From the IMG/VR virus record IMGVR_UViG_2671180524_000011: a stretch of DNA of 21,898 nucleotides; one strand, 5' to 3'. Positions 18,001 through 21,000 of the stretch are shown piece by piece. The position numbers are program-made. Numbering within the stretch: the stretch's first letter is position 1; each line of letters opens with the position of its first letter. This DNA comes from a virus. Taxonomy: Duplodnaviria; Heunggongvirae; Uroviricota; Caudoviricetes.

Positions 18001-21000
18001 GTCCCGCTATTGTCACGAAACTCATAACGTTCATCACCCACTTTTTTAACGATGCTCCCTTCAAGGATAACCCATGCATCATCCTTCAGTTCTTTTGCCT
18101 GCGCTACTGTTGAACGCTCTGCTTCAGGCCCTTGGAAACCGCCCTGCTGTGCAAAAGCGCCAAAAGACACACCAGAAATAAGTGCTGCAATCAATACCTT
18201 TTTCATTCATAGTCCTCTTTCAGAGATGAACATTCAAACAGCATTTTCAGTATGGTAAAGCGCGGGTGCGTTGAGGATGCCTGACACATCAGAGGTGGCG
18301 GGAGATTACTCCCCCGCTTGGTCTCTTACTTCTCAGATTCGTAGTCTACGAAGACAGCGACCTCCGTCTGACCGGTTCGGATTCGCACCTCGCAGAGGTC
18401 TTTCCTCGTTACCAGTGCCGTCACTATGACGGTTAAACAGATGACGATCNNNNNNNNNNNNNNNNNNNNNNNNNNNNNNNNNNNNNNNNNNNNNNNNNNA
18501 CGATCAGGGCGATTAACATCGCCTTTTGCTGCTTCATAGCCTGCTTCTCCTTGCCTTTCGGCACGTAAGAGGCTAACCTACATGTGTTCAGCATGGATTG
18601 AGCCTCAGATTAATGTTAAGCGTCTTGCCGGACGCGTAATGTTAACTGGGGCTTTTCTCTATCTGCCGTTGGTGTTCATGCCCGAGGCAGATAGCCTCAA
18701 GCACCCGCAGCAATTCTACTTAACTCTCCTTTTCCCGCAAACCGTTTTTATCTCCAGCGACAAATCGAATACACAACCAGCACCACCGCCATTACTGTTC
18801 CTACATTTGCGAATGCTTCAGGCCAGGTCATTGATTCACCTTCTGCTCAATATTTTTAAGGTCATTTTCCGCATACAGTATTGCAGTTCTTGCTGCCCGC
18901 AACCGTGCTTTGGTGTTCTTTTCTTCACGCTCGAGGCTGGCAACAGATTCTCGGAGCTGATCGTGTCTGTTATGAAGCTGTCTAATCTCTCTCACCACAG
19001 CCTCACCATCGTTCGCACACCGCAGAACATACTGAAAAGGGTCCACAACACATCCGCACTGCAAGCACAGGATAACGTGATCCTGTTCATGAACCTCAAT
19101 GGCCCGATGCTTACAGCTCTGTTGTGTGTAGTTTTTTCTGCCAGTTACTGTAATGTTCAGCAGCTTCTCTTCATCGCGCTTTGGCTGCACCAGTGTGATG
19201 ATATTATCGCCTTCATTTTCCATCAGTTCACCTCCTGCGGCGGTTCTGGTAGCGGCATCCAGTGTGACGGTTTCCACGACGCACCAGGAATTATCCACCC
19301 ATCATTAGCGTCAGGATGCCCCGGGATGTAAGTCGCCCACTTCATTCGCCAGTCACCTTTCCTGTCAAACTCCACGGCAACAAGAACGGCTGTTTTGGTA
19401 TCCGGCATTCGCTCACTACAACTTATCCAACCATCCGGAGTTACCGGAGAGTTGCCAGACAGCGCATTCTGCAACCGTTCCAGCTTAACGTATTCCTGAA
19501 CCCTGTTTCCGTCGCACGCCTGAAGCCATTGCTCAGCCTTTTGCGCATCAGTGTGAAAGGCACAAGTGCGACCGTCATCAAATTGCATTTCGTAGAGGTT
19601 AGCAATCTGTTCAAACTGCGTGTGTGGCAACTTGTAAGTTTGGCTTACGAGTTCGGCTTCCAGTTCTGCTATGCGCTTCTCTGATGCTTCAAGTAACGCC
19701 TGCTTATCGCGTAGCGCTTCTTCCAGTTCAGCAACATGGCATTCACTATCAATAAGGTTGTTCTCTGCTGCTCCCAGCTCAACTCTCAGCTTCCCAACCG
19801 TAAGCGCAATCTCCTCGTTCTCCTGGTCGCGGCGTTTGATGTATTGCTGGTTTCTTTCCCGTTCATCCAGCAGTTCCAGCACGGTAGCCGGGTTAGCCTC
19901 TGCTATGAATTCAGCGTTGCATAAGCCTGAGCATCTGTTTCAACCAGGCAGTTAACATGACATTCTGCAATCACGCCACCGGGTTCTCCTTTCCATTTTT
20001 GGCAAACAAAAACTCCTGTTAAATTGCCGNNNNNNNNNNNNNNNNNNNNNNNNNNNNNNNNNNNNNNNNNNNNNNNNNNTGTATGCCCTACGATGTAGCT
20101 TCCTTTAGTTGCTTTCTCTGCCTTTTCACGCAGTGCCTGATAGTCAATCTTGCTCATTTTTCTCTTCACTCCGGTATACAAGGATTACTACGCCCCCTCT
20201 GCTAATTGCGCGAGCTGGATCCCCTGGTTCCATGCCGTCAATACCGAAGGCTTCGAAAAATGCATCTATTGCCTTTTGGCGTTGCTCCTGCTTACGGCGT
20301 TTATTCCATTTTTTCATGAACAACAGTGACAGCCATCGTCCGCTGCAGAACATGATGTAGAAATAACCAAGGAGCGCTAGGCCGGTGTTCAGGGCTGTAT
20401 CGATCGTTATCGTGGTGTTGATGTTCACTTCACACCTCTCTGTTTGTTGATAAGTTCAATATCCTGCTGGCAACTGGCGCAAGCTCTGCATCCACGAACA
20501 GCCAGGCGTCGCCGCTCATCTATCGGATCGCCACACTCGCAACAATGAGTAGCAGATGGGGCATTACTATCGGATTTGTATTTTTGCAGGGAGAGATTGC
20601 GCTGCAATTCTTCGATTTCAGCGGCGTTGTCGATGATATCTGCCATTTTCCTTTCCTTCAGGCATGAAAAAAGGAGCCGAAGCTCCTTTGGTTTTAGAAT
20701 TCGAATTGCCTTGCCCGCAGGCTTTTCAGCATTGGTCTGGCCCGCTGAACTACGAAACTCGACTGGTCAAGCCGTGCCGCCTCTCTCAGTAGCACATCTC
20801 TGTTCTTCGTCACCATGTAGATGGTCTCAAACGCAATGTCATACAGCTTGTTCGTGTATGAGGAGTTCAGCTCTTTCATGATCGGATACAGGTGTTTGCT
20901 GAGGTCCTGGGCTTTTTCCATCCAGAGTTGCATGTAGCAGAGGAGGATGATTTCCTCGTCTGTGAATTGTTGCTGTGGTTCTGCTTGTGCCGACTGCATG

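Follow-up and report, generated by a model that had tools for sequence, protein, structure and literature searches.

A hokW-mokW-sokW type I toxin-antitoxin locus at a scaffold gap in a 933W-type Shiga-toxin phage record

When a toxin gene in a phage record is interrupted by a run of N, it has to be asked whether the gene or only the assembly is broken. We examined this question for a hok-type gene in the IMG/VR virus record IMGVR_UViG_2671180524_000011 (Caudoviricetes), a stretch of 21,898 nucleotides (nt) that is called the window below. By exact sequence matches, the window was assigned to a 933W-type Shiga-toxin phage, of which it forms the right-hand 21.8 kb. It contains two runs of N, each of exactly 50, at 18450–18499 and 20030–20079, and the first of these cuts a minus-strand gene of the Hok family in two. 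We conclude, with a probability of approximately 95%, that a 933W/Sp5-type Shiga-toxin prophage carries an intact type I toxin-antitoxin module, hokW-mokW-sokW, at this locus, and that the 50 N were inserted in scaffolding as a placeholder where two contig ends share 6 bp.

The scaffold gap and its closure

A first-pass annotation made from the sequence alone had described the two halves of the toxin on either side of the gap, with identical 6-bp flanks, and both the coordinates and the merged open reading frame (ORF) of 51 amino acids (aa) agree with that description. The minus-strand ATG at 18537–18535 starts MKQQKAMLIALI ahead of the gap, and beyond the gap the same frame reads ...VTALVTRKDLCEVRIRTGQTEVAVFVDYESEK to a TAA at 18328–18326. 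The hexamer ACGATC forms both immediate flanks of the N run (18444–18449 and 18500–18505). The chance of two given hexamers being identical is 1/4096, and ACGATC is not rare in itself (8 copies in the window vs 9.4 expected). When the two copies were merged into one, which removes 56 nt (the 50 N and one hexamer), the 51-aa ORF was uninterrupted. The closed junction sequences across this gap are GATGACGATCAGGGCG and ...CAGATGACGATCAGGGCG...

The closure was read from other genomes. The complete provirus Stx2a_F422 (F422) contains each of the three N-free segments of the window without a mismatch; in it, segment 1 corresponds to positions 1–18449 and segment 2 to positions 18444–19973; the overlap is exactly 6 bases, ACGATC. 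The 933W locus gives a 6-nt overlap as well, with the left flank reaching to locus position 2150 and the right flank starting from 2145. A 1501-nt query across the gap covered 1445 nt (1501 − 50 − 6) with 100% identity in 25/25 complete E. coli genomes among the matches listed, and the same span was covered, also with 100% identity, in 25/25 phage records among the matches listed. The closed 645-nt locus is 100% identical to the Sakai prophage Sp5. The earlier proposal that the contig ends overlap, and that the true locus is probably intact, was thus supported by closed genomes that are otherwise identical and that show exactly the 6-bp overlap, the closure being known from these genomes and not from the reads of this isolate.

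The 50 N are a fixed placeholder and neither a measured length nor a same-length mask, because the first gap stands for −6 nt while the second stands for 14 nt. This second gap lies within the Ea22/DUF4752 gene region, where F422 carries the 14 nt TGCTGGTTAACAGA, and its flanks are not duplicated. Masking of sequence at the same length is ruled out by the same two values, and a search of viral contigs for both flanks of the first gap exactly 50 positions apart, as a real 50-nt filler would place them, returned 0 matches. Concerning the reason for the contig break, 4028 of 5426 complete E. coli genomes contained the full-length 389-nt hok mRNA region, with up to 9 copies per genome at 90–100% identity. 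Short-read assemblies typically break at such repeats, and we infer that the multi-copy nature of the locus is sufficient to account for the break.

It could be argued that the gap conceals a true insertion in this isolate, for example an insertion sequence (IS) that was collapsed by the assembler, in which case the ACGATC copies would be a 6-bp target-site duplication and hokW a disrupted pseudogene. Seen from the flanks alone, such a duplication would look just like overlapping contig ends. Moreover, IS elements do enter this phage, as IS-type 'mobile element' genes break a 421-aa ORF in phage PA36, and they do enter hok loci, as an IS186 end lies directly at the 3' hairpin in K-12 hokC and in a plasmid copy. 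However, no foreign sequence is present at any contig end, all three segments match an uninterrupted phage exactly, and the junction is intact in every closed record among the matches listed. The other 50-N gap, a plain 14-nt gap without duplication, indicates that the scaffold breaks at ordinary places, and the repeat nature of the hok locus is enough to explain the break. In addition, the common IS elements of E. coli O157 give duplications of 3, 8 or 9 bp, not 6. An insertion at this site is therefore very unlikely, and we retain the reading of an intact gene across overlapping contig ends.

The IS insertions found during this comparison are worth recording separately. In PA36, at the equivalent of window position 7925 or so, two 'mobile element protein' genes (an insertion of approximately 1.3 kb) interrupt the 421-aa ORF, which is intact in the window at 7595–8860. 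An IS629 site at either of the two gaps was ruled out, the IS of PA36 lying in this 421-aa ORF. An identical IS186 end adjoins the 3' stem-loop of K-12 hokC and that of the hok locus of plasmid pPSS-10_1, removing the fbi region (see Table 1) in both; the GC-rich hok hairpin thus looks like a recurrent insertion site for IS186.

The hokW locus itself is already known: it has been named, annotated and studied experimentally, and the gap is an artefact of assembly. The correct annotation is an intact hokW and not two fragments or a pseudogene, in a record that is 56 nt too long at the gap. The case also illustrates how short-read assemblies break at type I toxin loci that are short and multi-copy.

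HokW, mokW and the RNA elements of the module

The merged HokW sequence matched the Pfam family HOK_GEF (PF01848) with 81.1 bits (cut-off 22) over profile positions 1–42 of 42, and PHROG 251 ('MokW-like host killing') with 112.9 bits; the score against the NCBIfam Hok subfamily was 53.6 bits, under the strict cut-off of 73. The merged translation displays an N-terminal hydrophobic helix, AMLIALIVICLTVIVTALV, followed by RKDLCEV with the conserved Cys30 of the LCE motif. The toxin had been called Gef-like at first. Membership in the Hok/Gef family was confirmed by the Pfam score, whereas Gef (HokC) was rejected as the closest named relative, as HokW is identical to HokD of CFT073 at 47/51 aa vs 80% identity to HokC.

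The mokW frame is an in-frame upstream extension of hokW by 19 codons, and the F422 record carries a 'host cell-killing modulation protein' at this position. The mok ATG is invariant in six homologues, but the mok frame itself varies between close relatives: hokW has it in frame with hok, plasmid copies have it in the +1 frame (68 aa), and CFT073 has a 19-codon ORF that ends in AUGA at the hok start. This variability fits a mok that acts by its translation and not by its peptide.

The mok and sok elements were all found within 18538–18740, inside the interval 18538–18830 in which the first-pass annotation had proposed to look for them. The GenBank record of 933W (AF125520) annotates hokW, mokW and the antisense sokW at exactly this locus, with a note that reads 'prophage maintenance'. 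The coordinates are collected in Table 1.

Table 1. Features of the hokW locus and of the second hok-type module in the window (minus-strand features are written from high to low positions)
Feature	Position	Strand	Description
hokW coding sequence	18537–18506 joined to 18449–18326	minus	51 codons + TAA; product MKQQKAMLIALIVICLTVIVTALVTRKDLCEVRIRTGQTEVAVFVDYESEK
mokW	18594–18326	minus	ATG 18594–18592, GAGG 8 nt upstream; in frame with hokW after closure; 70 aa (leader + Hok); annotated in 933W
Tyr47 codon TAC + following G (TACG)	18343–18340	minus	TadA editing motif; potentially editable second periplasmic Cys position
Scaffold gap	18450–18499		50-N placeholder without real bases; one flanking ACGATC copy redundant; record 56 nt too long here
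Putative hokW promoter	18740–18713	minus	−35 TTGCGG (18740–18735), 16-nt spacer, −10 TAGAAT (18718–18713); read from the sequence
hokW mRNA leader	18706–18532	minus	Holds tac, Sok target hairpin, mok start region and hok Shine-Dalgarno sequence
tac	18706–18695	minus	GGGUGCUUGAGG; first 12 nt of the mRNA
3' stem-loop	18317–18298	minus	GCGGGGGAG-UAAU-CUCCCGC; just 3' of the hok stop codon
fbi	18276–18264	minus	CCUCAACGCACCC; 3' end of the mRNA; predicted to pair with tac
sokW promoter	18551–18579	plus	−35 TTGCCT (18551–18556), 17-nt spacer, −10 TAACCT (18574–18579)
sokW antisense RNA	18586–18656	plus	71 nt; mapped from the 933W misc_RNA sokW, 58664–58734
Second, divergent hok-type module	5377–5733	plus	Coding sequence 5526–5666, 46 aa, HokA-like

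The hokW leader matched the Rfam family sok (RF01794) at full length, model positions 1–157, with 113.5 bits (gathering threshold 59). The match starts at approximately 18706, which we take as the 5' end of the mRNA, and the putative hokW −10 element sits 6 nt upstream of it. The predicted SokW fold has a single-stranded 5' tail that covers the mok AUG and Shine-Dalgarno sequence, followed by a long hairpin and a U-rich end (−31.4 kcal/mol, z −5.2). In the closed 389-nt mRNA, the minimum free energy (MFE) structure and the centroid structure both paired nt 1–12 (tac) with the 3' end (fbi), at −158.8 kcal/mol and z −6.22. This is the same long-range 5'–3' closure as is known for the hok mRNA of plasmid R1. 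Such a closure is also predicted, with different sequences, for the second hok module of the window, although this is a two-point comparison only.

The primers and probes of Takada et al. (2021) map exactly onto the window. The primer pair YO-349/YO-350 maps to 18268–18701, the northern probe for hokW mRNA is the plus-strand sequence 18549–18578, and the sokW probe YO-592 is the minus-sense sequence 18615–18586; from the strands of these probes, the strand of each RNA is experimentally established in Sp5. The published promoter-less mutant was directed to the same sokW −10 element as identified here, as the mutagenic primers YO-421 and YO-422 flank exactly 18574–18579. The hokW and sokW promoter assignments accordingly draw on positional homology and on this mutant, not on a generic promoter scan.

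A point of labeling should be added for RF01794. The family bears the name 'sok antitoxin' and matches the strand of the hok mRNA leader (18532–18706, minus), opposite SokW (18586–18656, plus), and strand calls taken from the model would thus mislabel the antitoxin.

The split ORF might also have arisen by chance, or it might be what is left of a decayed hok locus whose regulation no longer works, as with hokD (relF) of K-12. Many chromosomal hok copies are indeed degenerate: K-12 hokD matched the query only over positions 1–234, which hold the ORF and the 3' part but not the leader, and in the copy of APEC O1 Gln4 is changed to a stop (codon 4). In the present locus, by contrast, the ORF, the mok ATG, the leader (113.5 bits), the Sok promoter, tac and fbi are all present, and identical DNA is functional in Sp5 (PMC8621323). 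The intact merged ORF, the leader match, the closure of the mRNA and the identity to the locus studied in Sp5 refute this explanation, which we regard as practically without standing against that of an intact module.

Function of the module, and a second hok locus in the window

On identical DNA in Sp5, HokW was shown to be toxic and to be neutralized by SokW transcribed from the sokW promoter (Takada et al. 2021, Toxins 13:796, PMC8621323). RNase III and Hfq contributed to the neutralization by SokW, but only in part, and shorter hokW RNAs of unknown nature were seen. After treatment with mitomycin C, SokW vanished and the hokW mRNA persisted; HokW was then produced in a RecA-dependent manner and found in the inner membrane. 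Deletion of hokW-sokW delayed the growth arrest by about 40 min and reduced phage release to about half (PMC8621323).

These findings, taken together with the elements in Table 1, suggest the following mechanism. The minus strand would give rise to a hokW mRNA of approximately 390 nt, the full-length form of which would be kept closed by pairing of the 5' tac with the 3' fbi, and the translation of hokW would be coupled to that of the overlapping mokW frame. SokW (71 nt, from the plus strand) would pair with the mok Shine-Dalgarno/AUG region and thereby block translation of mok, and hence of hok, with a contribution of RNase III and Hfq. Upon prophage induction, SokW is lost, and HokW is made and inserted in the inner membrane, with an earlier growth arrest and a greater release of phage, as seen in Sp5. 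The tac–fbi closure, the activation by 3' processing and the coupling of mok and hok are, for hokW, proposed from the sequence and from homology to R1 hok/sok. The best-supported role of the locus is that of an induction-released type I toxin-antitoxin module that aids lysis and phage release.

Several observations weigh against this interpretation of the locus. (i) The flanks alone cannot separate a 6-bp contig overlap from a target-site duplication around a collapsed insertion, and the closure rests on other genomes. (ii) The RF01794 match is on the strand of the hok mRNA and not on that of Sok, and it therefore supports the leader fold and not the antisense gene itself. (iii) Covariation between tac and fbi was uninformative, as tac is invariant in the six hokW/hokD homologues and only the bulged fbi base varies. 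(iv) A generic scan of 18150–18900 for sigma-70 promoters and terminators found nothing. (v) The published phenotype is modest (two-fold), and the dependence on RNase III and Hfq is partial.

The modest size of the lysis effect also bears on the possibility that the module is intact but serves mainly another purpose, such as prophage addiction through post-segregational killing, or defense by abortive infection, as for R1 hok/sok against T4. The note 'prophage maintenance' in the 933W record speaks for such a purpose. Post-segregational killing and a reduced plating of T4 are described for R1 hok/sok (cited in PMC8621323 and in bioRxiv 10.1101/2025.08.07.668861), and hok genes are four-fold enriched in prophages according to a hok survey. 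On the other hand, deletion of hokW-sokW in Sp5 lysogens left growth unchanged, and the phenotypes that were measured all concern induction (PMC8621323). No PADLOC defense model matched either of the two Hok proteins of the window, nor were there matches for the ygiW-like protein, L0139 or the 27-aa ORF described below. According to one of its section headings, the same hok survey did not find hok enriched near defense systems, and chromosomal hok loci tested earlier gave no post-segregational killing (bioRxiv 10.1101/2025.08.07.668861). It is thus rather unlikely, though far from negligible, that addiction or defense is the main role; either could coexist with a lysis-helper role, the two not being mutually exclusive. 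The role in induction and phage release remains the one that we prefer.

The window contains a second hok-type gene, at 5526. Its product matched Pfam HOK_GEF with 33.2 bits (cut-off 22) and PHROG 251 with 85.8 bits, and both of its periplasmic Cys residues are hard-coded, as in HokA. The ORF is intact, and its C-terminus invariant, in 5/6 diverged homologues. The leader of the module covered the full length of RF01794 with 35.6 bits, which is below the gathering threshold of 59 (E = 2e-6 in a 551-nt search). A 360-nt RNA starting at 5377 was closed 5'–3' in both the MFE and the centroid structure (z −6.91), with the 5' sequence GGGUGCC...CGGCUG pairing with the 3' end near 5717–5733. Regarding a mok frame, no ORF enters the hok start: there is no ATG at the site that corresponds to the mok start codon, and the nearest upstream ORF (5423–5497, GTG start, 24 aa) stops 29 nt before the hok ATG. 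The antisense (minus) strand carries a candidate promoter, TTGACT-18-TAACCT, at about 5520–5491, and a 16-bp hairpin (z −7.2); a promoter and terminator scan of 5250–5800 returned only the lom terminator and a minus-strand hairpin and no promoter.

The 5526 ORF is a 'Hok/Gef family protein' in RefSeq, and it is listed as 'MokW-like host killing' or as 'host toxic membrane protein' in several phage records; the records of 933W and Sakai carry no annotation for it. The introduction, results, discussion, methods and figure legends of Takada et al. do not mention a second module (PMC8621323), and no experimental work on it was found in the literature searched. In the lineage of the Stx2a-converting phage Stx2_481 (approximately 92% DNA identity, many records), a 1-nt insertion frameshifts the second hok ORF and changes its C-terminus from WGAEFAAFLQCKQ to WGSGVCGVLTV; this copy, judging from the frameshift, is probably inactivated.

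The two hok modules had been thought to bracket a block of virion-protein genes on opposite strands. They are genuine Hok modules that face each other, but the virion block could not be established. The gene for the tail-tip fiber (2284–3552) and lom lie outside the bracket, and the genes between the modules encode a 2806-aa polyvalent protein, the ygiW-like BOF protein and members of several PHROG families without an assigned function, with one weak 'virion structural' similarity.

The second Cys position of HokW deserves attention in this context. Within the Hok family, the second periplasmic Cys is either hard-coded or replaced by an editable Tyr codon in the motif TACG (Bar-Yaacov 2017, PMC5630033), and the hokC, hokD and hokE mRNAs are edited from Tyr to Cys at the position equivalent to Tyr47 of HokW (PMC5630033). 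The TACG at Tyr47 was invariant in the six homologues. We tentatively suggest, while holding it to be doubtful, that the second module may be active and partly redundant with hokW, and that HokW may need A-to-I editing of Tyr47 by the host TadA for its second Cys and full toxicity. If so, redundancy with the second module would explain why deletion of hokW-sokW merely halves phage release, and editing of hokW would link the timing of phage lysis to host RNA editing. The second hok module and a possible editing of hokW by TadA are the threads that lead beyond the known locus.

Other features were noted in the window. An unannotated hydrophobic ORF of 27 aa, MTWPEAFANVGTVMAVVLVVYSICRWR, lies on the minus strand at 18748–18831 and ends just before the hokW −35 element; its ATG overlaps the stop codon of the upstream L0139 ORF (ATGA). 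By tblastn, it has counterparts with 54–81% aa identity in other coliphages, where the underlying annotation in some records is Ea22, EaA or DUF551, and it may be a real small membrane protein. The 'hokW-sokW' fragment cloned by Takada et al. includes this ORF, the primer YO-432 beginning at the ATG of the ORF. The 2806-aa ORF (8891–17311, plus strand) carries the domains LPD38, LPD5, LPD1 and MuF_C and is a 'large polyvalent protein' such as phages and conjugative elements encode. On the minus strand at 21364–21452, just upstream of the AntA/P22AR antirepressor gene (21323–20694), the full model of the Rfam family sRNA-Xcc1 (RF02221) was matched with 69.1 bits (gathering threshold 53).

Comparison with known hok loci

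The closest systems are the hokW-mokW-sokW loci of 933W and Sp5, which are identical in sequence over the whole closed locus. They have the same genomic position, between the ygiW-like BOF gene and L0139, and the same coordinates of the gene, mok and the antisense RNA. The sole difference is the assembly artefact of the present record (50 N and the duplicated ACGATC).

The nearest named relative is hokD (relF) of the Qin prophage region, by the 47/51 identical residues of CFT073 HokD. The whole 389-nt mRNA region aligns with hokD at 92–95% in most E. coli genomes (the 4028/5426 given above), and the hokD homologues keep the tac, fbi, Sok-target and TACG elements. At the C-terminus, HokW reads VDYESEK and HokD TAYEPEE. 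In CFT073, mok is the 19-codon ORF ending in AUGA on the hok start, whereas mok of hokW is an in-frame extension. K-12 hokD consists of the ORF and the 3' part only, with no leader, mok or sok.

In the hokC (gef)/mokC/sokC locus of K-12, the toxin has 80% aa identity to HokW, mokC is likewise an in-frame extension sharing the hokC stop, and the sokC antisense RNA is found at the equivalent place. The 5' leader of hokC aligns with that of hokW, including GGGTGCTTGAGGCT; its Sok-target hairpin, however, is 18 nt shorter, and its 3' end is broken by IS186.

Finally, hok/mok/sok (parB) of plasmid R1 has, like hokW, a toxin ORF, an overlapping mok, a cis-antisense Sok over the mok start, a closed mRNA and an involvement of RNase III, and its logic is presumed to be the same. 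HokW and R1 Hok share 44% aa identity (PMC8621323). The R1 module is located on a plasmid, which it stabilizes, whereas hokW is located on a temperate phage, its reported role is in phage release on induction, and Hfq contributes to its control.

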